From: Minisyncoccia bacterium
GTDB lineage: Bacteria > Patescibacteriota > Minisyncoccia > Phycocordibacterales > UBA918
Direction: 5' to 3'
Assembly (NCBI GenBank): GCA_046598345.1
Contig: JBKJIT010000003.1
Span: 5,089 to 69,088 of the forward strand
Length of the DNA: 64,000 nt
Positions 2,547 to 57,645 of the stretch are shown here, piece after piece. The stretch's first letter is position 1, and each line of letters begins with the position of its first letter. The position numbers and the translations under genes were made by a program. The notes below the pieces were generated by a model, which searched no databases, had not been told where the DNA came from, and was given only the letters and a program-made list of their open reading frames with translations.

Positions 2547-3181
2547 GATGTCTGTAGAATAGTAAGGGTTTCCGCCACAGGGATTAACGCATCCCTCTTT
2601 TCGGGTGCGCGCACATCCAGAACAAAAAACCAACCGGAGTATTTCTCAAAATGAAAAATGACCAAATCGGCATTTTCTCCTATGTGTTCAAGCCCATTTA
2701 TACCAGGAATACTTAGAGTAAGTGGCCTAGTTCGATACGAAGGTCCCACGTATTCCTTGAGTGTTGTTCCAAAAAAGGCTTCCCACGCGGCTTCATGTGC
2801 GTCTTCCTCACCGTTATAGAAAGTCCTGAGAATGATTGAATCAGTTGTACTTGAGACTGCGATGACGCTGTCCTCATTATTCAACTGCTGAACATTCATT
2901 GTGGATTCTGGATATGTGAGAGTGTAGGAAATACCTTTTGTACCCTGTTTCGGCTTATCAAATGTCTTTCCAGTAAAAGTACTCATAGGCTCTGGCGCAG
3001 GAATCACTACGCTTTCAGATACTTCGTTTTGTTTATCTCTTTCGATGGCACCCACTGGCTCTGGTTGACTCTGCTTGTTTCCAAAAAAAAGAAAAAACGC
3101 ATATGCGAGGAGTAATGCAAGCACAACGCTACCCGAACACATGATTGCGTACCCAATAATTTTTTGTTTAGGGGTTGCCAT
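2543..3181 (-). CDS. Membrane-anchored hypothetical protein (N-terminal TM, extracytoplasmic domain)
   Basis: 212-aa ORF whose stop TGA (2545..2543) overlaps the ATG (2546..2544) of the downstream giant surface protein, an ATGA overlap. Hydrophobic N-terminus VVLALLLAYAFFLFF. Confidence 0.5.
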   Translation of the reverse strand: MATPKQKIIGYAIMCSGSVVLALLLAYAFFLFFGNKQSQPEPVGAIERDKQNEVSESVVIPAPEPMSTFTGKTFDKPKQGTKGISYTLTYPESTMNVQQLNNEDSVIAVSSTTDSIILRTFYNGEEDAHEAAWEAFFGTTLKEYVGPSYRTRPLTLSIPGINGLEHIGENADLVIFHFEKYSGWFFVLDVRAPEKRDALIPVAETLTILQTS

Positions 3182-3302
3182 AACAAACCGTGGACAATTC
3201 CAGAGGTATTACCCCTAATATTAGCATGTAGTCACGTCAGTAAATTCACTTTAGTTGAATTCTGTGACTATTTTATAGCGAAACCAGATAATACGGACGG
3301 CC

Positions 3303-3330
3303 TTGACAAAATACCCTATGATGGTATATA
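3303..3330 (+). promoter_or_regulatory. Near-consensus sigma70-type promoter TTGACA-N16-TATATA upstream of 3422 gene
   Basis: TTGACA at 3303-3308, 16-nt spacer, TATATA at 3325-3330. GGAG Shine-Dalgarno sits 8 nt before ATG 3422. Confidence 0.5.
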
Positions 3331-3421
3331 CTCCTTTTCGGTTGGTTTGGTCTTTTCAAAAAAACTTTCGCGGGTAAAACCGCACCCAATTCCTAGGGGG
3401 TAACCTGGGTGGAGATGTGAA

Positions 3422-3826
3422 ATGAAAAGCATGAAAAGCATCATTTTGGCGGCCACCTTGGCTGTTTTGTCGCTATTGTCCTTCGGGGCATCGGCGGAAA
3501 ACAATGGCATTTGTGAGACGCTGTACGCCGTTCGAGCATTCCCCGAGGGTAAGCGGCCAACGATTATTCAGGCATGCAAGCCCCTTCTGGTCGGCCAACG
3601 GTGGTCAATGATCACGACGTGCGGCGGCAACGGCTTTGCCATCAATGGCAACTTCCCTCCCTATGTGTATCACGGGATGGGCGGAACGACCGTCAGCTGC
3701 GTTCAGCTCGAAGTGGCCAAAGCTGAAGCAAACAGGCAAATCGATGCGACCCTGAAGGCCCTGACGAAGCTCGGCGGCGACGCCAGCTACTGGATGGCTA
3801 TCCAGGACGCACTCCCGGCGGAATAA
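3422..3826 (+). CDS. Small secreted protein (signal peptide, Cys-containing), unknown function; visibly GC-richer than the surrounding genome
   Basis: 134-aa ORF. N-terminal MKSMKSIILAATLAVLSLLSFGASA is a signal peptide. Codon usage rich in GGC/GCC/CTG/ACG. Own promoter and own terminator. Confidence 0.6.
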   Translation: MKSMKSIILAATLAVLSLLSFGASAENNGICETLYAVRAFPEGKRPTIIQACKPLLVGQRWSMITTCGGNGFAINGNFPPYVYHGMGGTTVSCVQLEVAKAEANRQIDATLKALTKLGGDASYWMAIQDALPAE

Positions 3827-3848
3827 CGGGCAGACGATCTGCCCTCCC

Positions 3849-3887
3849 ATGCGCAGGTATCCTACCAAGGGTCCTGCGCATTTTTTT
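3849..3887 (+). terminator. Rho-independent terminator (ATGCGCAGG...CCTGCGCAT + T7), preceded by second hairpin GGGCAGACGATCTGCCC at 3828-3844
   Basis: Inverted repeat followed by TTTTTTT at 3881-3887. Confidence 0.6.
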
Positions 3888-3914
3888 AACCACGCATATT
3901 CGAAGGAGAATTGC

Positions 3915-4331
3915 ATGAAAATTCGTTCAGTGTCCTTTGCAACGATGGTGAGTTTTCTCTCCATATTCACTTGTGGTGCTCAGACTGCTCCGCCCATTAC
4001 GCCACCAGGAAGTTCCACACCGACGGTGGAAGTGGTGGTAACAGTTCCCTGCAATCACTATACGTGGATTCGCTGGTCCTCGTCGGCAAACACACGGTAC
4101 TGTTACATGCAGCATGAAGGACTGATTGAACCTAACGGCAAAAAGTACGTAGGGCCAATACTCGCCTACACCGTGCGGTCAGTGACGTGCTTCAATGGAA
4201 CTGGAACTGGCTGGAGTGCCCACTACCCCATCGCGATCGTTCCCAGCACCATAAATCCGGACAACCCGCACGACTGTCGCATTCCTGTCCGCCTCAAAGA
4301 TGATCACGAGGAAGACGGGTCTGTCCCATAA
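3915..4331 (+). CDS. Small secreted protein (signal peptide), unknown function, GC-rich
   Basis: ATG 3915 preceded by GAAGGAGAA SD. The track ORF begins at 3849, but that would read through the terminator. Signal peptide MKIRSVSFATMVSFLSIFTCGAQTA. Several Cys. Confidence 0.55.
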   Translation: MKIRSVSFATMVSFLSIFTCGAQTAPPITPPGSSTPTVEVVVTVPCNHYTWIRWSSSANTRYCYMQHEGLIEPNGKKYVGPILAYTVRSVTCFNGTGTGWSAHYPIAIVPSTINPDNPHDCRIPVRLKDDHEEDGSVP

Positions 4332-4365
4332 AATACAGACCGTGGATTAACCTCTCTGACAATCG

Positions 4366-4407
4366 CCCGTCCCACTCGAAGTATGAGAGTGGGACGGGCT
4401 TTTTTTA
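4366..4407 (+). terminator. Rho-independent terminator CCCGTCCCACTCGAAGTATGAGAGTGGGACGGG + T7
   Basis: Perfect 12-bp stem and T-run. Confidence 0.65.
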
Positions 4408-4461
4408 TGTACATTTTTATAACGCTGGAGGAGAACATGCGTTCTGGTGTATCATGACTCT

Positions 4462-5028
4462 ATGATTGCGCGCCTTACGGGAGAAGTGGTTGATGCAAAG
4501 CTCACGCATATAGTGCTCAGCGTTGGTGGTGTGGGGTATCTTGTCGCTGTCCGTCTCACCTCAGCATTTGAAATAGGTGGCCTCGTGACTCTCCACACCC
4601 ATCTAGCGGTGCGCGAGACTGCCCTCGATCTGTACGGATTTCTGACGCAAGACGAACTCCGTATGTTTGAGCACCTTATTAAGCTTCCGAAGATTGGTCC
4701 AAAGTCCGCGATGCAGATTCTCTCCCAAGCGGAACTTACCCTGCTCCGGCAGGCAGTACGAGAAAACGACCCGACATACCTCTCGAAGATGTCGGGCATT
4801 GGAAAGAAGAGCGCCGAAAAAATTGTACTCGGCCTCAAAGACATTTTTGAAGGTGACGATTTTCTTATGAGTGAAACCCATGGCGGAAAAGACGCAGACG
4901 TTATTGATGCACTTATTGCGCTCGGGTACTCAGAACGTGACGCGCGTGCTGCGCTCCAGAAGCTTCCCGCGGAAATCACGGATACGAACGACCGTATAAA
5001 ACACGCACTCAAATTTGTAAGTTCTTAG
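4462..5028 (+). CDS. ruvA: Holliday junction DNA helicase subunit RuvA
   Basis: MIARLTGEVV... N-terminus, helix-hairpin-helix middle region, C-terminal LIALGYSERDARAAL motif. Alternative GTG start at 4447. Confidence 0.85.
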   Translation: MIARLTGEVVDAKLTHIVLSVGGVGYLVAVRLTSAFEIGGLVTLHTHLAVRETALDLYGFLTQDELRMFEHLIKLPKIGPKSAMQILSQAELTLLRQAVRENDPTYLSKMSGIGKKSAEKIVLGLKDIFEGDDFLMSETHGGKDADVIDALIALGYSERDARAALQKLPAEITDTNDRIKHALKFVSS

Positions 5029-5199
5029 CCTCAACTGAACACCCCTTAGTCTCTCTTTTTCTCTCTTTTATTTTTTCTATCCTTAAAATTTTTTTGTCCC
5101 CGTCTTCTGTTCCTGTCTTCTTCTGCTCATTTTTACTTTTTTAGAGTTGCCCCAAGCTAATCAAGCTAACAACGTAATTTGTGTATTTACTTAATTCCA

Positions 5200-5239
5200 A
5201 CATATACCATAAGGGCCGTACGGCCCTTATGGTATATGT
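5200..5239. repeat. Perfect 40-nt palindrome ACATATACCATAAGGGCC-GTAC-GGCCCTTATGGTATATGT (copy 1)
   Basis: Self-complementary by inspection. Near-identical copy at 5970-6019. Confidence 0.85.
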
Positions 5240-5364
5240 TGCTCAAAAAAAGTTGGGCGATACTCAATATGAATAAAAATACAGAATATAAGGTATAGAG
5301 TGTTAGGTGTTGGGTGTGAAATATCGAACACGGGGTATTGGATATGAAATACGAAATGTGGAAT

Positions 5365-5410
5365 GTCGGGTGTCGGGTGTCGGGTGTCGGGTGTCGGGTG
5401 TCGGGTGTCG
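5365..5410. repeat. Tandem heptamer repeat (GTCGGGT)x6.5, preceded by degenerate GT-rich copies from about 5290
   Basis: gtcgggtgtcgggtgtcgggtgtcgggtgtcgggtgtcgggtgtcg. Confidence 0.9.
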
Positions 5411-5968
5411 TCAAATCCTAAAATATTTCCGCAGATGCTTGTCGTTTTCAATGTAATCTGACGTAAGATAAAGCACATCTGAACTGAGTCCGAGGTGTGA
5501 TTTTAAAAGTAGAATAAAATCATCACACGCATACGGATACACCCATACACTTTTCTGAAGCATGTAAAATCCGTACAATTTCATACCTCGACGAAGCTCC
5601 TTTCTCACTTTCTCTTTCGTATTCGGTACGTCAAAAACAACAACTCTCCACCTCTCATCCCATTTCTTTTTCTCGGAAGATTCTATCCTCTGATGCCTGA
5701 GGGCAATTTCCCACTTACCCTTCTTTGTAACCTCAAGTACTTTCTCGCCGCCCTCATTGTGTGTCTGTTTAATAAGCCCTGATCTGAGCAGTGATTCTAT
5801 GTTCCTCTTGATAGATTGTCCGGGTGAATACTTCTTACGCTTAAAAGTTCCCCCCAGAAGTGAAAGTGCATTCGGTGCCACTACAGCGATAGTTACCACC
5901 CCGAGGGTACCAATAGTCATAAGAACCCCTTCTCCAATTTTGCCTAGTTTTTGTCGCGTTAGTGACAT
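5411..5968 (-). CDS. PaaX-like C-terminal domain protein with N-terminal TM helix and winged-helix-like segment (putative membrane-anchored regulator)
   Basis: Motif KKKWDERWRVVVFDVPNTKEKVRKELRRGMKLYGFYMLQKSVWVYP matches the PaaX_C / Cas2-like W-D-x-x-W...F-D-V-P...L-R...G-F...L-Q-x-S-V-W pattern. Hydrophobic stretch VLMTIGTLGVVTIAVVAPNALSLLGG. An alternative start at 5920 (MTIGTL) has a better SD (GGAGAAGGGG). Confidence 0.45.
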   Translation of the reverse strand: MSLTRQKLGKIGEGVLMTIGTLGVVTIAVVAPNALSLLGGTFKRKKYSPGQSIKRNIESLLRSGLIKQTHNEGGEKVLEVTKKGKWEIALRHQRIESSEKKKWDERWRVVVFDVPNTKEKVRKELRRGMKLYGFYMLQKSVWVYPYACDDFILLLKSHLGLSSDVLYLTSDYIENDKHLRKYFRI

Positions 5969-5969
5969 T

Positions 5970-6019
5970 ACCGTAAATATACCATAAGGGCCATACGGCT
6001 CTTATGGTATATTTACGGT
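5970..6019. repeat. Palindrome copy 2 (about 50 nt, 2 mismatches) sharing the core ATATACCATAAGGGCC..GGC.CTTATGGTATAT with 5200-5239
   Basis: accgtaaatataccataagggccatacggctcttatggtatatttacggt. Confidence 0.85.
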
Positions 6020-6040
6020 GTAGGGGTTATTTGGGTTATA

Positions 6041-6064
6041 GGGGTATAGGGGTATAGGGGTATA
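6041..6064. repeat. Tandem octamer repeat (GGGGTATA)x3 with degenerate copies from 6022
   Basis: ggggtataggggtataggggtata. Confidence 0.8.
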
Positions 6065-6207
6065 TGTCTATCTATACAGTGCGCTTTAATACTTTTTAAT
6101 AATTAAGGTGTTTTATGGAGAAAAATGTATGGGGAAAGAGCAATCCGCCAACCTCATTTAATTTGAGGCAAAGCGAAAAACCCGTATACTAAATTTAAGC
6201 TTTTCAT

Positions 6208-7497
6208 ATGGAATCTTTGCTTTACCACTTAAAACGACTTTTCCCAACTTCGTTATTTAAGCTCGTGCAGCCTCCTTACCACTACCTCCTCGCAGTACTC
6301 GGAGCGATGTACTATCAATTCCCCTCAAAAGAGATCACCGTTATCGGAGTAACCGGAACGAAAGGAAAATCAACGGTCGTTGAACTTGTAAACGCACTTT
6401 TTGAAGCTGACGGGAAACGAACTGCACTCGCGGGAACAATTCGCTTTAAAATTGGGGAGAAAAGCGAACGAAACCTTCACAAGATGACTATGCCGGGAAG
6501 ATTTTTCATGCAGAAGTTTCTCAGGGATGCGGTGAATGCTGGGTGCGACGTTGCAATCGTCGAGATGACTTCAGAAGGCGTGCGTCAGTCCCGACATAAA
6601 TTCATTCACCTTGATGCGCTCATATTTACAAATCTTTCACCTGAACATATTGAATCCCACGGCTCGTATGAGAAATATATTGCGGCAAAACTAGAACTAG
6701 CGCGGGCGCTTGAGGAGTCAAGGAAGCGCCCGCGCTACGTGATCGCGAATAGTGACGACGCGCAGGGCGCGGCGTTCCTCCGTGCGCGAGTAGAACACGC
6801 ACTCCCCTACAGTCTCGATGATCTTGAGCTCTACACATTAAACCGTGAGGATGTGAGTCTCGTGATAGATGGTACGACGATTCGCGTTCCGTTGGTTGGT
6901 CTTTTCAATATTTATAATGCACTAGCGGCAATCGTAACTGCGCGCGCATTTGGCATTCCACTTAAAACCATACTCGGTGCGTTTGCAAATTTAGCTCCCA
7001 TTAAAGGCCGTGTTGAACGCTTTAAATCTCCGAAGGGTGCGGCACGAAAAATTACTGCGGTAGTCGACTACGCACATACTCCGGATTCACTGGAGAAGCT
7101 CTACCAAGCATTTGAAAAAGAAAAGAAGATTTGTATTCTCGGCAACACAGGAGGAGGAAGAGACAAGTGGAAGCGTCCAGAAATGGGACGAATTGCCGGG
7201 GAATACTGCGAGCGCGTGATCCTCACGAACGAAGATTCATACGATGAAGATCCGGCAAAAATTGTTGACGAAATGGCACGCGGAGTTGAGGATGAATCAA
7301 AAGTAACTATCATCATGGATAGACGTACGGCAATTCGCACTGCACTTGAAGAAGTGCCAGACGGGGGCGTCGTGCTTATTTCCGGGAAAGGTACTGACCC
7401 GTACATCATGGGTCCTCACAACACGAAAACACCATGGAGCGACGCGAAGGTGGTGGAGCAAGAAATGGCTGCGCTCTTTGGTGAGCAGGCTACGTAA
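6208..7497 (+). CDS. Mur ligase family protein (MurE-like UDP-N-acetylmuramoyl-tripeptide synthetase, short form)
   Basis: P-loop GVTGTKGKST, DYAHTPDSLEKL signature typical of MurE, C-terminal Mur ligase domain ILGNTGGGRDKWKRPEMG. Confidence 0.65.
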   Translation: MESLLYHLKRLFPTSLFKLVQPPYHYLLAVLGAMYYQFPSKEITVIGVTGTKGKSTVVELVNALFEADGKRTALAGTIRFKIGEKSERNLHKMTMPGRFFMQKFLRDAVNAGCDVAIVEMTSEGVRQSRHKFIHLDALIFTNLSPEHIESHGSYEKYIAAKLELARALEESRKRPRYVIANSDDAQGAAFLRARVEHALPYSLDDLELYTLNREDVSLVIDGTTIRVPLVGLFNIYNALAAIVTARAFGIPLKTILGAFANLAPIKGRVERFKSPKGAARKITAVVDYAHTPDSLEKLYQAFEKEKKICILGNTGGGRDKWKRPEMGRIAGEYCERVILTNEDSYDEDPAKIVDEMARGVEDESKVTIIMDRRTAIRTALEEVPDGGVVLISGKGTDPYIMGPHNTKTPWSDAKVVEQEMAALFGEQAT

Positions 7498-7529
7498 CTT
7501 TTGTTTGAACTAAAAGGGGTGCGTGCGTT

Positions 7530-7991
7530 CTAGGCGAAGTGGAACAAAATAATCCCCGCCGCGACGGAAACATTGAGCGATTCTTTTTTACCCTCCATCT
7601 TGATGTGGAGCACGTGGTCACACACTGCACAGATTTCCTGCGGCACTCCCTCTATTTCATTTCCTAATATGAATGCCACGTCGAGCACGATCCCTACGCT
7701 TCGATACTCCTGCGAACGTTCGTGTTGCTCAATCGCAACAATGGAGACCCCTTCGGCTTTCAGTTTCAGGATCACCGCTTCAGTAGTTTCCGCGTACTCC
7801 CAAGGAACTGTTTCAGTCGCGCCGAGGGATGTTTTTTGTATATCTTCCCGAACCCGTCCAAAACGATCTGTAGGACACGGCGTGTACCCTGTGAGAAAAA
7901 TCTTTCGAATGCCTGCTCCGTCCGCACTTCGAAAAATAGACCCTACGTTATGGGCACTGCGTATATTATGAAGAATGACGTATCGATTCAT
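7530..7991 (-). CDS. SpoU/TrmH-family RNA 2'-O-methyltransferase
   Basis: ILHNIRSAHNVGSIFRSADGAG start and SPOUT C-terminal motifs (LGNEIEGV, SLNVSVAAGIILF). Start taken at MNRYV (7991) rather than the track 8033. Confidence 0.75.
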   Translation of the reverse strand: MNRYVILHNIRSAHNVGSIFRSADGAGIRKIFLTGYTPCPTDRFGRVREDIQKTSLGATETVPWEYAETTEAVILKLKAEGVSIVAIEQHERSQEYRSVGIVLDVAFILGNEIEGVPQEICAVCDHVLHIKMEGKKESLNVSVAAGIILFHFA

Positions 7992-8006
7992 GATGGTACA
8001 CTGTAC

Positions 8007-8363
8007 ATGATGTTGAATCCGTTTCCCATTCAATTCCTCGCGCTCCTCGCATATGCACTTTTACGTATCTGTGTTGGAGGAATTCTTGCGTACCGTGCTA
8101 CTTCCCATCTTCGCGAGAAACGAACGCTGGTTCAGGCCTTTGGCGCACTCGAGCTTGTCTCTGGGCTCATGCTGATTGTGGGCTACTACACGCAAATTGC
8201 AGCACTCCTATCGGGAGGAGTTGCACTCCTTGCGCTCTCGGTCCACGCTGTTCGATCGGCACTCAGTATGGGAGGGCGGCAATTTTACCTCCTTCTTTTT
8301 GTTGCTTCCCTTTCCCTTTTCATCACGGGAGCGGGATTCTTTGCCTTTGATTTGCCTATCTAA
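8007..8363 (+). CDS. DoxX-family small membrane protein
   Basis: 118 aa with 3-4 TM helices; LALLAYALLRICVGGILAY... The track ORF (7722..8363) is over-extended through the SpoU gene. Confidence 0.5.
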   Translation: MMLNPFPIQFLALLAYALLRICVGGILAYRATSHLREKRTLVQAFGALELVSGLMLIVGYYTQIAALLSGGVALLALSVHAVRSALSMGGRQFYLLLFVASLSLFITGAGFFAFDLPI

Positions 8364-8394
8364 CCAGTGTCAAAATCCGTGATACAATTTCTTC

Positions 8395-9204
8395 ATGACT
8401 GACGTCTTATACTATTTACTCCATGGAATGCTTGCTCCCTCGCCCGTTTTTCTCATTGGGTACGTTATTGTAACTTCGCTTCTCACCCTCCTCGCGGTGT
8501 CCTGTTACCTACACCGCTCTCAAACTCACCGTGCTGTGAAATTCATTTCTCCCATAAGTCATGTTTTCCGGCTTATTCTTTGGCTTTTTACCGGAATGGT
8601 GACGAAGGAGTGGGTTGCGGTCCACAGGAAGCATCATGCATCGAACGACACCCCTGAAGATCCCCACAGCCCTCGTCATTTTGGTCTTAAAAAAATCCTT
8701 CTTGAAGGTGCTGATATTTATCGCGACGCAGGAAAAAATTACCCACACCTTATGGATGAGTACGGCGAAGGCACTCCTGATGATTGGATGGAGCGAAACG
8801 TGTACTCAGGAAAGCTTCGCAATTGGGGTATCCGTGTAACGCTTGTTGTTGAGCTTGCTCTCTTTGGCCTTCCTGCACTCATTATTTGGCCGATTCAAAT
8901 GCTTGTGATCCCCATAATGGCTGCAGGATTTATTAATGGGATCGCGCACGTCTATGGGTATCAGCGATATAAAGACGGGATGCCGAGAGGTAATGGAAAA
9001 GTATACGAACGTATTGGAGATGCACGAAACGTACCGACATACGGTCTTGTCGTTGGAGAAGAGTTTCACAACAACCACCACGCTGAGCAGGGCAACTACA
9101 AATTTTCACATGCATGGTACGAATTCGATCTCGCTGGAACACTTATTGAACTCATGACCTGGATAGGCTTTGCGTGGGTGCCAACCCGACCAAAAAACAA
9201 TTAG
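8395..9204 (+). CDS. Membrane fatty-acid (acyl-lipid/acyl-CoA delta9-type) desaturase
   Basis: Three histidine boxes: HRSQTH, HRKHHASNDTPEDPH, HNNHHAEQ. Multiple TM segments. Confidence 0.7.
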   Translation: MTDVLYYLLHGMLAPSPVFLIGYVIVTSLLTLLAVSCYLHRSQTHRAVKFISPISHVFRLILWLFTGMVTKEWVAVHRKHHASNDTPEDPHSPRHFGLKKILLEGADIYRDAGKNYPHLMDEYGEGTPDDWMERNVYSGKLRNWGIRVTLVVELALFGLPALIIWPIQMLVIPIMAAGFINGIAHVYGYQRYKDGMPRGNGKVYERIGDARNVPTYGLVVGEEFHNNHHAEQGNYKFSHAWYEFDLAGTLIELMTWIGFAWVPTRPKNN

Positions 9205-9355
9205 CGAGTGATGTCGACATGATGAATTGATGTGCTATAGTTTCGGGGCGCAATTTGGCGCTATCATATCAGTACATCTCAGCTGTACGCGTAAACAGTA
9301 CCCCGCACTGCTTACCCTTATTAAGGAGAAGGTACGCATGTACAATTAAATATAT

Positions 9356-9428
9356 CCGCCCATAGCTCAGCCGGTAGAGCAGCTCCCTTTTAAGGAGAAG
9401 GTCCTTGGTTCGATCCCAAGTGGGCGGA
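9356..9428 (+). tRNA. tRNA-Lys (anticodon UUU)
   Basis: Cloverleaf by hand: acceptor CCGCCCA/TGGGCGG, D-stem GCTC/GAGC, anticodon loop CTTTTAA, T-stem CTTGG/CCAAG with TTCGATC loop. No encoded CCA. Confidence 0.85.
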
Positions 9429-9437
9429 CTCACAAAA

Positions 9438-9476
9438 ACCAAAAGGACTAGTTCATATGAACTAGTCCTTTTGGTT
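9438..9476 (+). terminator. Perfect hairpin ACCAAAAGGACTAGTTCATATGAACTAGTCCTTTTGGT after tRNA-Lys
   Basis: 18-bp inverted repeat followed by TTT. Confidence 0.55.
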
Positions 9477-9651
9477 TAGCATGCAAACTGCTTTGCACGC
9501 GACGCATGTCCGAACCGGAATGATGTTTTTTGCCCCGAAAAACGAATGAGGCGGGATCGCGAACACTTAGGAGCGAAGCGAGTTAGTGATTCGTGATGAC
9601 AAAAGATTGAAACCTGAATAGTTCATGTACTCAAAAATTCCGAAGGCTGTT

Positions 9652-10062: not shown

Positions 10063-10760
10063 AGAGAAAGAGCCCATTTTTCCAGCGCTATATCCATATC
10101 CCGTTTCCCCAAATGCGCATCATGGTAGATGGTAAGAAGTTCCCTTGAGATTACATCCACTTCTCCCGGCTTAAATGATGCGAGCGCCCGCTTTGCTTTC
10201 GAGTACACAAAGGGTTTTTGTTTTGCTTCGTCCGCACTCTTTGTCTTCTCCGCAAGCCGGAGCATTTTCACCTGCCAATAGAGGGTTCCTAGAACTTCTT
10301 CCGGAGAAAGCCCTTCACGCCATGCCTGCATAAGAAGGAGCCAGAGCGTTTTCTTATCCCGCTCGAGGAATGCATTAGCGAGCCCAAATGCATTGAAACG
10401 TTCCTTTAATGCGCCGCTGTATTCGGTACACGCATCGGCATGTTTTGCGAGCGCTTTTACCTCCGCCGCTTTTAAAGCCCCCTCAATACAAATAAAAGTG
10501 TGCGCAGATTCGTGTAAGAGTTTTGCTTCCTGAGTAAGTTCTTCAAATGCATCTGGCTCCTCAGAGAGCGTATCGAGTATGATAATCTCACATCCCTGGA
10601 AGAGCGACATCCCGGTCGCCGCATTCGCGAGTATTCCTGGTTCATACGTTTCAGAAGTAATAGTTCGTGTGATCGTTTCTTCCGTCTCCAAAACATGCGC
10701 CTCTTTGAAAGCTTTTTCTCGAACTGTAATGACGTCACTTCCCCAGAAAACTCGAAGCAT
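10059..10760 (-). CDS. holA: DNA polymerase III delta subunit (HolA), short form
   Basis: MLRVFWGSD N-terminus and overall delta-subunit-like helical architecture. Confidence 0.65.
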   Translation of the reverse strand: MLRVFWGSDVITVREKAFKEAHVLETEETITRTITSETYEPGILANAATGMSLFQGCEIIILDTLSEEPDAFEELTQEAKLLHESAHTFICIEGALKAAEVKALAKHADACTEYSGALKERFNAFGLANAFLERDKKTLWLLLMQAWREGLSPEEVLGTLYWQVKMLRLAEKTKSADEAKQKPFVYSKAKRALASFKPGEVDVISRELLTIYHDAHLGKRDMDIALEKWALSL

Positions 10761-10773
10761 GATAGGGTAAAGT

Positions 10774-11193
10774 ATGCGCTATCTTACGTATTTCCTCAAT
10801 CTCCCCTGGACGCTCATTGGGCTTTTGAATGCGCTCATCGCTGTTCCCATAAAAATGGAATTTCGAAATGATGCGATTATTTTTCATACGAAAACTGTAG
10901 GACTTGTTGCCTTATACCAGCCAAAAGGGGCTGGGGTAGCCCTTGGTAACGTTGTGATCGTAAAACGCGATCTTGCTATAAAAATCCTTGATCATGAGCT
11001 TGTGCACATTGAGCAATTTATGCGCGAACCGTTTATTCATCCTTTTTTATACTCGATAGAACTCTTAAGAAAAGGATATTTCAACAATAAATATGAGTTC
11101 GAGGCCTATGAACGTACTGACAGTTGGCCAGACTATATCAAAAAAGACAAAGAAAATTTTCTTAAAAATTCCAAAGTAATACGGATCAAATAG
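10774..11193 (+). CDS. Hypothetical protein with HExxH (HELVH) motif, possible small zinc peptidase-like protein, N-terminal TM
   Basis: DHELVHIEQ motif; hydrophobic N-terminus. Confidence 0.35.
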   Translation: MRYLTYFLNLPWTLIGLLNALIAVPIKMEFRNDAIIFHTKTVGLVALYQPKGAGVALGNVVIVKRDLAIKILDHELVHIEQFMREPFIHPFLYSIELLRKGYFNNKYEFEAYERTDSWPDYIKKDKENFLKNSKVIRIK

Positions 11194-16694: not shown

Positions 16695-16702
16695 CTGACA
16701 CA

Positions 16703-16736
16703 AAAAATCTCACGCGTGGGCGTGAGATTTTTTGTG
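16703..16736 (+). terminator. Rho-independent terminator AAAAATCTCACGCG-TGGG-CGTGAGATTTTTT
   Basis: Perfect stem + T-run. Confidence 0.7.
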
Positions 16737-16840
16737 TCTAAAACTTCTTTTATGTTAGAAATGAATTTTCTTTTTGGGTCAAGGGGGCATTTAGCGTTTG
16801 TATGCTATATTCCCTCTTAACACGTCTGCACCTTGAGATC

Positions 16841-19315: not shown

Positions 19316-19561
19316 ATGTTTTTAGAAGAAGAGGAAGAAAAAGAAAAAGAGATACTAGACGATGCGCTCCTCGACGGTCTCGTGGAAGAAGTGGTGCTCG
19401 ATGATGAACTCCTTGATGAAAGTGGGGTGCCTATTCCGATACCTGAGGCAATAAAGGAAATTGACGAATTTGCAGACGACAAGGAGTTGTTGGACGGTGA
19501 CTTAGAAGAAGACGAGGAGGTGGATGACTATGACTCATTCGACGACCACGACGAGCTATAA
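19316..19561 (+). CDS. Small highly acidic low-complexity protein (81 aa, D/E/L-rich)
   Basis: ORF sits between ruvC and a strong terminator. Weak SD; could be spurious. Confidence 0.3.
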   Translation: MFLEEEEEKEKEILDDALLDGLVEEVVLDDELLDESGVPIPIPEAIKEIDEFADDKELLDGDLEEDEEVDDYDSFDDHDEL

Positions 19562-19572
19562 AAGAAAACATA

Positions 19573-19605
19573 AAAACCGGCGGCCCCTAGGGGCCGGCGG
19601 TTTTT
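19573..19605. terminator. Bidirectional rho-independent terminator AAAACCGGCGGCCCCTAGGGGCCGGCGGTTTT
   Basis: Perfect GC-rich palindrome flanked by A-run and T-run, between convergent genes. Confidence 0.8.
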
Positions 19606-19625
19606 ATGTTTTCTTTACGAAACTA

Positions 19626-24907: not shown

Positions 24908-26308
24908 CTACTTGAGGAGTGTACGTATTTGTGACACCTCTTCCTCAAGTTCGGTATCCACGAGAAGTTCACGTTTTATCTTTTCACACGAATGAATAAC
25001 GGTGGTATGGTCGCGGCCACCCATTTTTTGTCCAATAGCGGGATATGAAACGCGAAAATCTTCTCGAAGGATATACATAATAAGCTGACGCGGCTTCACC
25101 ACCTCTTTTCGTCGTGTCTTTTCATAAATACTTGAAGGGTCGATGTCAAAATAACGCGCAACCTTATCTACAACGTCAGAGACCGCAAGTGATTTCCGTG
25201 GTCGGGTACTGTTTTTTATAAGCACCTTCACTTCATCAAGGGAGAGTGAGCGACCAAGGAGTTGTGACTGGCATAGAATGGTATTGAGTGCGCCTTCAAG
25301 CTCACGAATGTTGCCCTCAATAATTTTTGAAAGGTGCTCTACAACTTCGTCAGCGAGTGTAATTGTGTTCTGTGCTGCTTTTGCTTTCAAGATAGCGGAG
25401 CGTGATTCTGAATCCGGGGGTGGAATATCAACAATCATTCCCTGTGAGAAACGAGAGCGGAGTCGATCCTCCATACCGTTCATGAGCGCAGGGTGTACAT
25501 CACTCGAGAATACAATCTGCTTGTTGTTGTCGTGCATTGCATTAAAGAGGTGGAAAAGTTCTTCCTGTGTCTTTTCTTTTTGTGCGAGAAACTGCACATC
25601 GTCCATGATTAAAATGTCATACTGTCGGTATTTATCTTTGAAACTATTTGCCGTACCGCTTTGGAGCGAATTCATATAATCCACGGTAAAACGCTCACTC
25701 GTGACATAAAAAACCTTCTTCCCTTGTCGTTTAAGCTGGTTCCCGATTGCTTGGATGAGGTGGGTCTTACCATGACCTGTCTTCCCATAAATAAAGAGTG
25801 GATTGTATGCAATTCCAGGCTTTGCAACCACTGTTTTTGCTGCAGCGTGGGCAAGTTCGTTGAATGGACCCACAACAAAGGTCTCAAACACGTACTTTGG
25901 ATTCAAATTGTCGCTCTTATTAATGTAGTACTCCTCAAGTGGAAGAGCCGCATTTACCGTTTGCTTCTTTGAGCTCTCGTTTTTCCGGTCATTTCGCTGA
26001 ACTACCGCGTATTCAATGCTTCGCACGTGCGACGTAATATCTCGAAGATTTTTAAGTATGAGTGCTTGGAACTTGTCTTGAATCCAGTCGCGTACAAACA
26101 CACTCGGCACAGCGAGTGTCACTGTGCCGTCTTCAAGTGCAAGAATGTATGTATCGCGGAACCAGGTCTTGAAATTCGCCGCAGTTATGGAGAGTTCGAT
26201 GGTTACGAGCACGTCGTCCCATAATTTTTTCACATCAATTTGTTCTGTTTGGAGAATGCTTGTTGATGTATTCGGGAGGTAACTCATAGCAGACGAATCT
26301 AATAGCAA
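24908..26308 (-). CDS. dnaA: Chromosomal replication initiator DnaA
   Basis: GKTGHGKTHLIQAIGN AAA+ motif, C-terminal DNA-binding domain. Confidence 0.9.
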   Translation of the reverse strand: MLLDSSAMSYLPNTSTSILQTEQIDVKKLWDDVLVTIELSITAANFKTWFRDTYILALEDGTVTLAVPSVFVRDWIQDKFQALILKNLRDITSHVRSIEYAVVQRNDRKNESSKKQTVNAALPLEEYYINKSDNLNPKYVFETFVVGPFNELAHAAAKTVVAKPGIAYNPLFIYGKTGHGKTHLIQAIGNQLKRQGKKVFYVTSERFTVDYMNSLQSGTANSFKDKYRQYDILIMDDVQFLAQKEKTQEELFHLFNAMHDNNKQIVFSSDVHPALMNGMEDRLRSRFSQGMIVDIPPPDSESRSAILKAKAAQNTITLADEVVEHLSKIIEGNIRELEGALNTILCQSQLLGRSLSLDEVKVLIKNSTRPRKSLAVSDVVDKVARYFDIDPSSIYEKTRRKEVVKPRQLIMYILREDFRVSYPAIGQKMGGRDHTTVIHSCEKIKRELLVDTELEEEVSQIRTLLK

Positions 26309-26550
26309 GCATTATACCGGGCTGTGGAAAAGTGTAAATAGATATCGAAAAAACGAAGCAATGCGCCATGTTGCATAACTGCTGTGTACAAGATGTGGAG
26401 AACAAAAAATAGTTTGCATCAATTTTGTATGACACGCATTCGCAAATACAGTTTAAGAAATACGCATTTATTTCAAATAATCCTCGAAGATCATTCCTAT
26501 TGATTAAAAAGGACGCTTAGTGTACATTAAGCCACACAAAACATTCATAT

Positions 26551-26688
26551 ATGTCAAAGCGAACCTATCAACCAAAGAAGAAAAAGCGGGCAACAACCCA
26601 CGGTTTTCTCGTACGCAGCCAAAGCAAGACAGGTGCTAGGGTCCTCCGGGCGCGTCGCCGCAAGAAGCGTGCAAAACTGAGTGTTTAA
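26551..26688 (+). CDS. rpmH: 50S ribosomal protein L34
   Basis: [45 protein letters not shown]. Below the track's length cutoff; found by eye. Confidence 0.85.
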
Positions 26689-26702
26689 GCTACACTAGAA
26701 GC

Positions 26703-27035
26703 ATGCTAGCCAAAAAAGAACGATTGAGCCGAGAGACCTTCAATCGTTCTTTTTCGTTGGGAAAGCGGTTACACGGGACGACGCTCCAGCTCGTGTACTC
26801 GAAATCTGAGACACTCCATGGCGCTGTGGTGATTCCAAAAAAGATTGAACCCCGTGCAGTTATGCGGAACAAGCTTCGGCGTCGCGTCTACGATGCGCTC
26901 CGCCAGGTAGCTAAGGAGGAAGGGGTGATTGGTACATTTATCTTTATTTTTAAAGCGAAAAGTTCAGCGCGAGCGTTTACTGATTTGAAACAAGAGGTGT
27001 CTGAATTGGTACATACAGTGACAAAGCAAAGGTAA
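26703..27035 (+). CDS. rnpA: RNase P protein component
   Basis: Position after rpmH and basic RnpA motif KLRRRVYDALR. Confidence 0.8.
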   Translation: MLAKKERLSRETFNRSFSLGKRLHGTTLQLVYSKSETLHGAVVIPKKIEPRAVMRNKLRRRVYDALRQVAKEEGVIGTFIFIFKAKSSARAFTDLKQEVSELVHTVTKQR

Positions 27036-27060
27036 TCGACTATAGTAAGTCACGTTTTCT

Positions 27061-27807
27061 ATGTTTAGCTCAATTTGGCACGGAGTCTTCTTTGATCCGA
27101 TATACAACAGCCTCGTATTTTTTATCGATTCGTTGCCAAAGGGCGATGTTGGGCTCGCGATCATTGCTACTGTGGTACTCGTAAAGCTTATTCTTCTCCC
27201 CTTTTCCCTAAAAGTCGCGCGCACGCAGCTCATAATGCGAGAGATAGAGCCAAAGCTCAAAGAACTTAAAGAAAAGTATAAGGATCAGCGGGAAGAACAG
27301 GCTCGCCGCATGATGGAACTCTACCGGAATGCCGGGGTAAATCCCTTTTCAAGCATCCTGCTTCTTTTTCTCCAGATCCCTATTGTTATCGCCCTTTATT
27401 TCGCCGTCTCTACCGGTGGTGGTGTTTCACTTCCAAATATCAATATAGACCTTCTCTATTCATTCGTTCCGAAGCCAGAGACCGCCAATATGCTTTTCCT
27501 TGGAATTGTTGACATTGCAGGGAAAAGTCTTCTTCTTGCTCTTCTTGCAGGCATTACTCAGTACATTACCGGGCACCTTACCCTTCCCAAGCCTGAACCG
27601 CGTCTCGCAGACTCGAAACCCGATTTTAAAGACGATCTCGCGCGGAGCATGCAGCTTCAGATGCGCTACATGATGCCGATTCTTATCTTTGTTGTTGCCT
27701 ACACTATTTCAGCAGCGATTGCGCTCTACTTCGTGGTGAGTAACCTCATGGCAATTGCACAAGAAGTTGTCGTCCGACGCCAAGGTCTCAAACCAGCGAA
27801 AAAATAA
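27061..27807 (+). CDS. yidC: Membrane protein insertase YidC (short form)
   Basis: rpmH-rnpA-yidC synteny, multi-TM, YidC/Oxa1 core. Confidence 0.8.
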   Translation: MFSSIWHGVFFDPIYNSLVFFIDSLPKGDVGLAIIATVVLVKLILLPFSLKVARTQLIMREIEPKLKELKEKYKDQREEQARRMMELYRNAGVNPFSSILLLFLQIPIVIALYFAVSTGGGVSLPNINIDLLYSFVPKPETANMLFLGIVDIAGKSLLLALLAGITQYITGHLTLPKPEPRLADSKPDFKDDLARSMQLQMRYMMPILIFVVAYTISAAIALYFVVSNLMAIAQEVVVRRQGLKPAKK

Positions 27808-27877
27808 ATAGTTGAATACGTGCGACAGAGAGGTGCTCCGCATCTTTCTCTGAATAACTGAATAAAAATCAGAATAT

Positions 27878-27934
27878 GAAACCCCGTCATATCCTATACG
27901 GTCCGGCCGGACCGTATAGGATATGACGGGGTTT
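27878..27934. terminator. Long perfect palindrome GAAACCCCGTCATATCCTATACGGTCCGG|CCGGACCGTATAGGATATGACGGGGTTTT between yidC and the convergent T4SS-like operon
   Basis: About 27-bp stem with T-run. Confidence 0.6.
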
Positions 27935-27974
27935 TTGTCGGGTCTTTGTTTGGGGGTAAGGATGTTATTTTCTT

Positions 27975-29126
27975 TTAGTCACCTCGCACCGAGGTGTCAT
28001 ACATCCAGAGGGTACCGTCGTTTTTGTTTATGAAATAGATGTAGTCTCCATTTGCACTTACACCAATCTTTGACACATCAACCTCTCGTCCACTTTCAAC
28101 TTCAAAATCACTGAGGAGTGCCCCCTCGCCAGATGTGATATTAATTTTCCAAAGACCATCGGAAAAGGAGACTATTCCTTTATACCAATCGTCTGGGTAC
28201 AGTGCTTCCGGCATTTTGAAGGGCGCTGCACAGATCAAATGTCCCCCCACGGGTTCCTCGGTGCATTTTTGAGGAAAGAGTGAGAGTGGAAGAGGACGTG
28301 TCTCAGCCGCTGACACATGTGAAGAAGTTAAACTACTTTCAGTAATTTTTGTCATACCGATGCCATACAGTGCAGGAAATGCCATAAGCCCAACCCCACC
28401 TGGAGCCACATATCCAAGGGAACCATTTGTGATTCGATAGAGGTGTCCAATCTGTGCCCCGCTCGGAGTGGTGTATACATATGTGTCTGTCCCCCATACA
28501 ATTTGTATGTCGCGTAGAGGGATTGAAAACAGCACGGAGGTTTGCCCGGTTCCTATGTGGTACTGCACACCCACCGTACCAATATCAGTCGGTTCAATAT
28601 ACGAAATGGTATTTTCCACTGTAAACGCCGCTTCCCGTGCGCGCGGGGGCAGCTGAAGTGTTTCAATTTTTCCTCCAGAACTATCTGAAACATACGTCCC
28701 TAACACAGTCTGTATTCCCGCTTCGGTATCATACGTAATAAGCACTCGTTCACCAGTTTCGTTAAAAATTGCATCTGTTGTACGTGGGAGGGTGGTGCCG
28801 CTGAGGAGCGTTTCATTGCCGCTTAACAGTTGTATTTCATAGAGATGGCCAGTTCCCCGTTCCATGTAGCGTACTCGTTCGCCGATAAAAACAGCACCCG
28901 CAACCGGACGTGTGGTTAGTTGTCGCAGTGCTTTGCGTGATGCTGTGTCATTACTCCCCCCATTTTGTGATGAACTCGGTTCAAAAACGCTTGGTGATCC
29001 AGAACCAAAATTAGCAAAGATGTCTTCCCCATTTTCGGGTGCACCAAACATAAACAAATATACCCATACAACCACAATAAGGAGGATAATGATGATGCCT
29101 GAAATAATGAGAATTGGTTTTTTCAT
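27975..29126 (-). CDS. Membrane-anchored extracytoplasmic protein (possible beta-propeller), last gene of T4SS-like operon
   Basis: N-terminal TM IISGIIIILLIVVVWVYLF. Start ATG 1 nt after the upstream stop. Confidence 0.5.
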   Translation of the reverse strand: MKKPILIISGIIIILLIVVVWVYLFMFGAPENGEDIFANFGSGSPSVFEPSSSQNGGSNDTASRKALRQLTTRPVAGAVFIGERVRYMERGTGHLYEIQLLSGNETLLSGTTLPRTTDAIFNETGERVLITYDTEAGIQTVLGTYVSDSSGGKIETLQLPPRAREAAFTVENTISYIEPTDIGTVGVQYHIGTGQTSVLFSIPLRDIQIVWGTDTYVYTTPSGAQIGHLYRITNGSLGYVAPGGVGLMAFPALYGIGMTKITESSLTSSHVSAAETRPLPLSLFPQKCTEEPVGGHLICAAPFKMPEALYPDDWYKGIVSFSDGLWKINITSGEGALLSDFEVESGREVDVSKIGVSANGDYIYFINKNDGTLWMYDTSVRGD

Positions 29127-56745: not shown

Positions 56746-56752
56746 CTAAAAT

Positions 56753-56790
56753 AATAAATACCGCGCGCCTTTGGCGCGCGGTATTTATTA
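56753..56790. terminator. Bidirectional terminator AATAAATACCGCGCGCC-TTTG-GCGCGCGGTATTTATT
   Basis: Perfect palindrome between convergent genes. Confidence 0.7.
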
Positions 56791-57645
56791 TTCATCGTTC
56801 TTCCCCCTTCCCGTATTTTCTCGATTTCCCTCGTTTCCATTCTGTGGCTCACGCACCGTCGACTCCCCTTCCACCACACCCTTTTCTGGATTTTTTTCTA
56901 CTTCAACGCGGACTTCCCCATCCTTTTTTTCAATACGCGTCCGGTCATTTTTCCGGGTGATGTCAATTCGTGTTTCACCGCTAGCATCATGGCGGATTAC
57001 AACGGTGCGACCCTTTTCCACTGCATCTTCCTGCCCGTCTGCTACATTCACCTCAAGTGCGAACGCGTCAATTTCATGAAAGATCCCTTCAAGCATTTTT
57101 TCACGGTCAATTTCCTCAAGTTCTGTGTCATCAATAAAACTGAGTATTGCATCAACTGCAACACCGACGCGCTCCTCCCCATGCTTCGACAGAGATTTTT
57201 GGGCCTGGGTGCTCGTCGTGGGCACCATCATTTTCGCTACATCATCTGAAATCGAGTGCTCATTAATAAGTTCGCGTAACTCTGCGATACGTTTTTCAGA
57301 AAGTGCAGATTTAAGTTCTCGCTTGGCTTCGGCATTTTTAGTTAAATGAAGTCTTGTATTTTCAATCACGCGCTCGAGCGGGAAAAGTACATCCCCGGGA
57401 CGTGAGCCATCTGCTGCGAGCGCAGTAGTGCCGCCGGTAATGACGACGAGAAGAATAACGAAAGCTGAAAGAAGCGAGCGATGATACGCAAGACTACTAA
57501 ATGTAAAAGGTAAAAAAGGAGAGGGTACGGCACTCTGAGGAGGGAGCTTTTCAGAAATACGTGTCCACAGTAATGCCTCTACCTCATCGTTGAGGCGAGG
57601 TGCGTGAGCGTTTAATTTTTCTATAATGTGTTTGTCGTCTTTCAT
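56788..57645 (-). CDS. Putative anti-sigma factor (single TM, K/E-rich extracytoplasmic domain) coupled to ECF sigma
   Basis: ATG 1 nt after the sigma stop; TM LLSAFVILLVVITGG. Confidence 0.45.
   Translation of the reverse strand: MKDDKHIIEKLNAHAPRLNDEVEALLWTRISEKLPPQSAVPSPFLPFTFSSLAYHRSLLSAFVILLVVITGGTTALAADGSRPGDVLFPLERVIENTRLHLTKNAEAKRELKSALSEKRIAELRELINEHSISDDVAKMMVPTTSTQAQKSLSKHGEERVGVAVDAILSFIDDTELEEIDREKMLEGIFHEIDAFALEVNVADGQEDAVEKGRTVVIRHDASGETRIDITRKNDRTRIEKKDGEVRVEVEKNPEKGVVEGESTVREPQNGNEGNRENTGRGKNDE

Follow-up and report, generated by a model that had tools for sequence, protein, structure and literature searches.

Within a 64,000-nt stretch of the Minisyncoccia bacterium contig JBKJIT010000003.1, hereafter the window, the 1179-nt gap between ruvA (4447-5028, plus strand) and the Mur ligase gene murE (6208-7497, plus strand) contains a small gene on the minus strand (5411-5968, 185 amino acids, ATG at 5968). 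The gene encodes a predicted short relative of the repressor PaaX, which we call mini-PaaX, and it is bracketed by two near-identical palindromes. We think, with moderate confidence, that the palindromes are two cognate 38-bp binding sites of the enclosed protein and that the whole is an autoregulated mini-PaaX with twin operators, carried as an insertion-polymorphic cassette. The gene with its two sites makes up a compact, self-contained module, with ~660 bp between the site centers; the module is widespread in Patescibacteria, where its site-gene-site layout recurs in hundreds of genomes, and is inserted between ruvA and murE here.

An earlier reading of this region, made from its letters alone and referred to here as the sequence-only reading, had described two near-identical long palindromes, tandem repeats, and a pyrimidine tract around the enclosed gene. 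All of these features were found, with refined coordinates. Palindrome 1, which had been given as a perfect 40-mer at 5200-5239, is indeed perfect, and its full extent is 44 nt (5198-5241). Palindrome 2 (5970-6019, 50 nt) consists of two 23-nt arms (5970-5992 and 5997-6019) with one mismatch around a 4-nt center, and a single nucleotide separates its end from the ATG at 5968. The two palindromes have a 36-nt core in common (5202-5237 and 5977-6012) that is 94% identical. A 14-nt half-site matched four times in the 64 kb, always inside the two palindromes, against an expectation of 0.25; none of 100 shuffles reached four matches.

Twin sites around one gene family

In the closest homologous loci, one palindrome precedes the start codon and another follows the stop codon, and the two are alike within a locus and different between loci. 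To quantify this arrangement, we compared the 150 nt upstream of each homologue with the 300 nt downstream in 74 loci and used mismatched locus pairs as the control. A shared flank segment scoring at least 14 was present in 59 of the 74 loci and in 0.8% of the mismatched pairs, and one scoring at least 20 was present in 43 of 74 loci and in no mismatched pair. When 58 genes of the window served as a control, the mini-PaaX gene alone had such flanks (score 30; the runner-up scored 12). Among 230 neighboring genes in the fetched loci, two had anything similar and none reached 20. The site pair is a trait of this gene family.

Alignment of the sites on their symmetry axes yielded a 38-bp unit whose outer inverted boxes, 8 bp each, are variable and whose core, CKRYMG, is common to the family. 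Within a locus, the two copies had an identity of ~0.3 outside the unit, of 0.82-0.98 at positions ±11 to ±18, of 0.72-0.82 at ±6 to ±10, and of 0.92-1.0 over the 8-10 bp at the center, and dyad symmetry followed the same profile. Across loci, C-3 and G+3 alone are invariant. The cores found were CGGTCG, CGACCG, CGATCG, CGGCCG, and CTATAG; the window has CGTACG and CGTATG. There, the downstream copy (5201-5238, core CGTACG) lies within palindrome 1 and begins ~170 nt past the stop codon of the gene, and the upstream copy (5976-6013, core CGTATG in the orientation of the gene) lies within palindrome 2, between divergent genes.

Measured from center to center, the two copies are 594-897 bp apart (median 659). 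Exactly two copies occur within ±2.5 kb in 42 of 43 loci, and the same was seen in a 20-kb view of locus L106. Locus L046 has three perfect copies (at 2406, 3303, and 3880), which bracket a second small open reading frame (ORF). Locus L105 has one upstream copy (9966) and four tandemly spaced downstream copies (10593, 10641, 10759, and 10808, in the region 10590-10830). The extra copies in these two loci suit arrays of binding sites; the cluster in L105 may be an operator or a centromere-like array. One subclass of loci has its ATG within the 3′ arm of the upstream copy. Of the site pairs with clear asymmetry, 18 are direct and 6 are inverted.

The site arms vary between loci and also among the paralogues of one genome (L050, L060, and L072). 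Locus-specific arms call for a locus-specific reader, and the encoded protein is the sole locus-specific factor; we therefore infer that it binds the sites. The window locus forms a clade with L002, L004, L005, and L006, in which TATAYCATAA-type boxes and a similar recognition helix (Q-S/A-I-x-R-N) recur in three genomic contexts. Because the clade shares its boxes across these contexts, the sites appear to travel with the gene and not to be a duplicated target sequence.

A PaaX/Cas2-like protein and its family

Residues 101-176 of the encoded protein match Pfam PF20803 (PaaX_M) at 5e-20, with 71.8 bits against a cut-off of 24. The protein also passes the NCBIfam Cas2 model TIGR01573 (26.7 bits; cut-off 24.5), falls slightly under the cut-off of PF09827 (22.4; cut-off 23.8), and is matched by the Cas2 models of PADLOC. 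With the PaaX equivalog model TIGR02277, it scores 34.3 bits, far under the cut-off of 264.55. No match to PaaX_C, the C-terminal effector domain, was found; the protein stops at residue 185, directly after the middle domain. Pfam, NCBIfam, and PADLOC returned PaaX_M and Cas2 only, and no transposase or recombinase domain.

From the N terminus, the domain order is a hydrophobic helix (~14-35), a winged helix (~47-100), and the Cas2-like PaaX_M domain (101-185). The hydrophobic segment at residues 14-32 has a 19-residue Kyte-Doolittle score of 2.0; of 50 family members, 49 score 1.6 or higher, and the helix is probably membrane-spanning. In the AlphaFold2 model, the predicted local distance difference test score is 81 overall and >90 for residues 105-185. 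The model has a helix (49-63), a β-hairpin wing (66-80), a further helix (82-96), and then a β-α-β-β-α-β domain; the hydrophobic segment, where model confidence is low, takes the place of the first helices of a canonical winged helix-turn-helix (wHTH) or masks them. The top Foldseek match was E. coli PaaX (8a39) over the full length, followed by AspA, Rv0674, Cas2 structures, and MarR/PadR. Profile searches of PDB sequences returned Rv0674 and, over residues 47-100, the winged helices of MarR and AspA; a single-sequence PDB search with the Cas2-like domain returned nothing. The family has an invariant Cas2 signature, comprising Asp113 in FD-V/I-P, R122, and Q-x-SVW. Since the predicted fold and the Foldseek and profile matches fit a winged helix plus a Cas2-like domain, we use mini-PaaX for a protein modeled as these two parts, the latter a dimerization domain, without an effector domain and with an extra hydrophobic helix.

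PaaX, the phenylacetyl-CoA-responsive repressor of the paa catabolon in E. coli and Pseudomonas (PDB 8a39 and 3l09), likewise has a winged helix followed by a Cas2-like middle domain. Its operator of ~39 bp carries short outer inverted boxes, a geometry similar to that of the 38-bp sites described here with their boxes at ±11 to ±18. PaaX is, however, a protein of ~300 amino acids with a C-terminal effector domain, whereas the window protein has 185 amino acids, lacks that domain, and has the additional hydrophobic N-terminal helix. Paa genes were found neither beside the window gene, which is flanked by ruvA and murE, nor among the neighbors in 80 loci. Unlike PaaX, the module also has a conserved dyad core, a second site copy downstream of the gene, and an insertion polymorphism. 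The Cas2-type Asp is present in the window protein but missing from the PaaX-like Rv0674 in the profile alignment. The module thus resembles an autoregulated PaaX-type repressor but falls outside PaaX proper, given the absent effector domain, the absent paa context, and the sub-threshold TIGR02277 score.

The likeness to Cas2 resides in the C-terminal 85 residues, which carry the Cas2 fold and signature. In contrast to Cas2, the domain is one part of a longer protein that also has a wHTH and a hydrophobic helix, and neither cas1 nor a CRISPR array lies nearby: a tandem-repeat scan of the window found no CRISPR array, and no recurrent cas neighbor was found in the 80 loci. The two 36-38-nt palindromic "repeats" lie ~660 bp apart and bracket a gene, not a spacer. 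AspA, the centromere-binding winged-helix protein of the Sulfolobus plasmid pNOB8 (PDB 5k5q), is among the top structural and profile matches through its winged helix. It binds a palindromic site according to PDB titles, and site arrays occur in some module loci (L105). The module loci differ in being chromosomal and single-gene and in lacking ParA/ParB partners, and the similarity is that of a generic wHTH only.

As far as our searches show, the family occurs only in Patescibacteria (Paceibacteria/Parcubacteria lineages). We found 183 close homologues and, in species-representative genomes, at least 586 loci, often as several paralogues per genome; the family comprises ~690 clusters at 50% identity (E up to 1e-30). 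Viral contigs contained no family member. Database labels are inconsistent and read "Cas2," "PaaX," or hypothetical, and the literature that we searched contained no paper linking PaaX with Cas2 or PaaX with bacteria of the candidate phyla radiation (CPR). Paralogues within one genome are old (35-45% identity) and their sites differ. Mean identity in the family is 27% in the winged helix, its most divergent part, and 55% in the Cas2-like domain. The neighbors in the 80 loci are varied housekeeping genes, with 267 ORFs falling into 210 clusters.

Presence and absence of the module

In four relatives (L085, L087, L088, and L089; MurE 81-84% identical), ruvA is followed directly by murE after a 70-254-nt spacer, and the gene is absent. 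These empty junctions imply that the module is an insertion in the window lineage. The empty spacers of the relatives are also T/C-rich and low in G, and an AAAAACC..TATACT motif (window 6176-6190) is common to relatives without the module. Because relatives with empty spacers share them, the pyrimidine-rich tract (5040-5160, plus strand; 78.5% C+T, the maximum of the window) and the murE promoter-like site (TTGAGG-16-TATACT, 6163-6190, plus strand) belong to the native spacer, and ~5160-6170 is extra DNA, with the promoter-like site as its right limit. The empty spacers have diverged too far for their alignment to the window to be informative, and no target-site duplication or solo site was recognizable at the empty sites. 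In the window itself, a 25-nt direct repeat of 72% identity at 5124 and 6080 is probably due to chance, and no target-site duplication was recognizable there either.

A second polymorphic position lies near the replication origin. In loci L005 and L006, the space that separates yidC from a convergent gene, adjacent to dnaA-rpmH-rnpA, contains a homologous module (52-53% identity). At the orthologous yidC position of the window (27795-27987), there is an ordinary A-run/T-run terminator palindrome alone. In L005 and L006, the canonical terminator persists beyond the downstream site, and since this separate terminator remains, the downstream site is not the terminator. The origin neighborhood of the window spans 24908-27792, with dnaA (24908-26287, minus strand), rnpA (~26703-27011), and yidC (27061-27792); its dnaA product is 85% identical to the DnaA of L100, and the mini-PaaX module of the relatives sits right past yidC in this neighborhood.

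In L046 (2300-4520), the module lies between rplE and rpsN of the ribosomal spc operon, a placement that we take, from general knowledge of this operon, to be an insertion into a conserved operon. A 99-aa ORF on the minus strand (3422-3721), with no Pfam match, was inserted along with this module, and a structured-looking G+C-rich stretch (~3960-4090) follows the insert.

Identical proteins shared a single context on every contig sampled (23 for P0093, 9 for P0012). Because identical proteins keep the same neighbors, movement appears to be rare and to occur on a between-species time scale. The suggestion of a recombination-prone element is thus borne out insofar as the unit is present or absent among relatives, but not by these identical proteins with their fixed surroundings. 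Copies of the palindrome were absent from 185,579 species-representative genomes, and a scan of Joint Genome Institute (JGI) metagenomes gave two matches, both unrelated GC-rich terminators; neither collection includes the window's own genome. The sequence-only reading had proposed that a palindrome confined to this place, with the same structure at the orthologous loci of relatives, would favor a conserved terminator pair over a mobile element. Within the window and these collections, the palindrome did prove to be confined to this locus, but the orthologous loci of the relatives lack the whole structure.

We also considered the window palindromes at 27879-27934 and 9436-9477 as solo sites left after excision. 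Both were rejected as ordinary bidirectional terminators because of their A-run/T-run flanks and their position at convergent gene ends or after a tRNA. Perfect or near-perfect palindromes of up to 56 nt with such flanks occur at 27879-27934, 19561-19616, 9436-9477, 56750-56792, and 16697-16738. They appear to be bidirectional terminators, placed between convergent genes or after a tRNA, and their sequence is unrelated to the module sites.

Other features noted in these loci concern tRNA and homing-endonuclease genes. L004 (1630-2450) has a tRNA-like fragment, ..catccgcccatagctca.., three times beside intact tRNA genes, and the window (9240-9430) has a partial copy of a ..ttaaggagaaggt.. arm upstream of a tRNA; these fragments may be remnants or duplications of tRNA genes. 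LAGLIDADG homing-endonuclease genes lie at 7497-8324 in L085 and 8573-9284 in L087, syntenic with the window (SpoU methylase/DoxX neighborhood). A counterpart was not noticed in the ORF list of window positions 3000-9000, and no further check was made.

Possible roles of the sites: operators, mobile ends, or hairpins

If the sites are operators, a dimer would read the variable outer 8-bp boxes (±11 to ±18) through its winged helices, and the conserved CKRYMG core on the dyad would lie beneath the conserved Cas2-like dimer. In the window, the right arm of the upstream copy contains a candidate extended -10-like element, TGGTATATT (5976-5984, minus strand), identified by reading the sequence. 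It ends 7 nt before the ATG, from which a leaderless or near-leaderless mRNA is predicted. Since the upstream copy overlaps this element, bound protein would occlude the promoter and shut off the leaderless or short-leader mRNA, an autorepression like that of PaaX at Px. PaaX represses its own promoter sterically through the 39-bp operator TGATTC-N27-GAATCA with its outer inverted boxes (PMC9493321). Across the family, -10-like hexamers in the right arm were more frequent in upstream than in downstream copies (20 versus 9 at +5 to +9; 13 versus 1 at +15 to +19), and the corresponding hexamer of the downstream copy in the window is TATATG on both strands, with the final T missing.

The upstream palindrome is symmetric out to TTTACGG and thereby has the extended -10-like TGGTATATT on both strands. 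The mirror-image TGGTATATT on the plus strand (6005-6013) is a possible divergent promoter, which would launch a transcript through the adjacent G-rich repeat in the direction of murE, beside the native murE promoter at 6163-6190.

The downstream copy would serve as a second operator, either to loop out the gene for stronger repression or to block transcription across the module boundary. An assignment of this site as operator or promoter of the next gene was rejected, given that about half of the downstream neighbors are convergent. Auxiliary distal operators and DNA looping are familiar from DeoR, LacI, and GalR, in which identical palindromic operators lie hundreds of base pairs apart, one of them at the promoter. 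The module resembles these systems in its two or more palindromic sites, one at the predicted promoter. In the DeoR, LacI, and GalR systems, the auxiliary operator is not known to be placed systematically just past the regulator's own stop codon, and the targets are catabolic operons and not only the regulator. The proposal, also made from the letters alone, of a structured module with a regulatory or insulator role beside a regulator-like gene comes close to the reading that the comparative data favor.

Several observations weigh against twin operators. The promoter call is a hexamer match without a -35 element. The regulator has no obvious output, as its detectable targets flank its own gene only (in the 64-kb window and in the flanks of 42 of 43 loci), and for about half of the downstream copies the next gene is convergent. 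No helical phasing was detected in the distance between sites. The inner arms and the non-symmetric centers match between the two copies, more than a symmetric dimer would need for binding; the identity of non-symmetric positions points to homogenization or a further constraint. Covariation between winged helix and box is weak and confounded by shared descent, although its direction is as predicted: box identity tracks winged-helix identity more than Cas2-domain identity (partial r 0.145 versus 0.068), and L059 and L071, which have the same box, are 93% identical in the recognition/winged helix. Lastly, a membrane anchor is unusual for a repressor, and the invariant Cas2-type Asp (D113) would be superfluous for mere dimerization.

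A rival explanation, which we regard as unlikely, is a selfish mobile cassette. Here, the 38-bp sites would be ends or recombination substrates, and the wHTH-Cas2-like protein would attach to the outer boxes and nick or cut the core for excision, insertion, or homing, with a Cas2-type metal site at the dimer interface proposed to act on the dyad core. The sole bases conserved family-wide are those of the dyad core, and the conserved part of the protein is the Cas2-like domain with its invariant signature and its score above the NCBIfam cut-off. Two loci are polymorphic, ruvA-murE being filled in the window only and the spot between yidC and the convergent gene being filled in L005/L006 but not in the window; in L046, an otherwise conserved spc operon contains the module. 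Neighbors are highly variable, the sites accompany the gene, and the evolution of the two copies is concerted, non-symmetric positions included. On the other hand, the protein has no known transposase or recombinase domain, and an N-terminal membrane helix would be odd for a transposase. The single contexts of P0093 and P0012 indicate no recent mobility, the paralogues are old with different sites, and bursts of identical copies are missing. The mixture of direct and inverted site pairs fits neither terminal-inverted-repeat transposition nor obligatory excision, the empty sites show neither a target-site duplication nor a solo site, and the family is absent from viral contigs.

Beside the module in L068 (1890-2380) lies a 122-aa HNH endonuclease gene (PF01844, 2.7e-6) with inverted copies of a short hairpin of its own (ATCTGGC..GCCAGAT) on either side, a second type of hairpin-bracketed small gene. 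HNH endonuclease genes are a known mobile gene type, and this similar bracketing favors mobility of the module to some extent. Small genes flanked by palindromic hairpins that their product recognizes are also known from RAYT/REP and IS200/IS605-type elements. The module shares with these a small gene bracketed by co-varying palindromes, a ferredoxin-like fold core, and intergenic insertion. Unlike them, it has no HUH/Tyr transposase domain, no dispersed palindromes, and no identical multi-copy elements; each of its ends is itself a full palindrome, and the orientation of the ends is mixed.

Taken further, site-gene-site modules could be an unrecognized class of tiny selfish elements of Patescibacteria, in which the wHTH-Cas2-like protein would find its own flanking 38-bp sites by their variable outer boxes and cut or join DNA at the dyad core with a Cas2-type center; we find this still more doubtful. 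In a milder variant, the membrane-anchored protein would tether its own locus, as a chromosome-organizing or centromere-like device.

We judge it improbable that the palindromes act as RNA hairpins at the 5′ and 3′ ends of the mRNA, as stabilizers, a translation gate, or factor-independent insulators or terminators, possibly bound by the Cas2-like protein, whose fold is known for RNA binding. As RNA, each palindrome would form a very stable hairpin (-34 to -38 kcal/mol, z about -8 to -10), long perfect palindromes appear to act as terminators elsewhere in this genome, and one subclass of upstream sites has the ATG in its 3′ arm. Downstream copies show a slight excess of sense-strand wobble pairs (42 versus 24, p = 0.036), but upstream copies show the opposite bias, and ~62% of the non-Watson-Crick positions are not wobble-compatible, which is near random. 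Hairpins would also leave unexplained why sequence is shared within a locus and differs between loci. Many sites are only partly self-complementary, with an inner-arm symmetry of 0.60-0.72 and asymmetric centers such as CAGGGG and CTGGAG, and an Rfam search gave chance-level matches only. As the sequence-only reading had anticipated, the palindromes are not simple terminators: neither is followed by a T-run in the window, a terminator scan of 4900-6300 found no terminator-like site, and an ordinary terminator lies beyond the downstream site in L005/L006.

Least probable by far, and largely refuted already, is that the palindrome and a G-rich tandem repeat with G-quadruplex (G4) potential form a duplicated structural or insulator element, or a repeat resembling a miniature inverted-repeat transposable element (MITE). 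The two repeats are (TGTCGGG)x6.7 at 5364-5410 (plus strand, 100% matches in Tandem Repeats Finder), which abuts the stop codon, and (GGGGTATA)x4 at 6033-6064 (plus strand, same program), which is part of a degenerate (GGGGTATA)n repeat (6021-6064, plus strand) just upstream of the upstream site. Both are C-rich on the sense strand of the gene, and the latter is G-poor there. As had been suspected, they have G4 potential on the plus strand: they are the only two canonical G4 motifs of the window on either strand, and each lies 5′ of a palindrome in the orientation of the gene. The sense strand upstream of the upstream site is G-depleted family-wide (G 0.09-0.15). What is duplicated, however, is only the palindrome, because the units of the repeats differ and one abuts its palindrome (6021) while the other lies ~125 nt away (5364-5410). 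The module flanks of other loci held one G4 motif, which equals background density, and two short tandem repeats. Neither the G4-type repeats nor the pyrimidine tract is part of the conserved unit. A MITE-like character is contradicted by a unit that codes for a protein, by only two site copies in 64 kb, and by the lack of real copies in the genome and metagenome collections. The G-rich repeats are best seen as local microsatellites specific to this locus, lying where the sense strand is poor in G across the family.

Patescibacteria (CPR) are mostly uncultured, and their gene regulation is almost unknown. What appears to be new here, judged by comparative sequence analysis, is a shortened PaaX/Cas2-like protein, probably anchored in the membrane, with a gene that systematically lies between two 38-bp sites on an insertion-polymorphic cassette. 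The comparison predicts dozens of candidate orthogonal protein-site pairs that are testable in vitro and in heterologous reporters, and such pairs could serve as compact orthogonal repressor/operator parts. It also flags solo "Cas2" genes in CPR genomes as likely misannotations. Were the Cas2-like domain to act on the core, the Cas2 fold would be linked to site-specific DNA transactions in a new kind of mobile cassette. If the modules are indeed selfish elements, Cas2-fold proteins would gain a site-specific DNA-processing role outside CRISPR.

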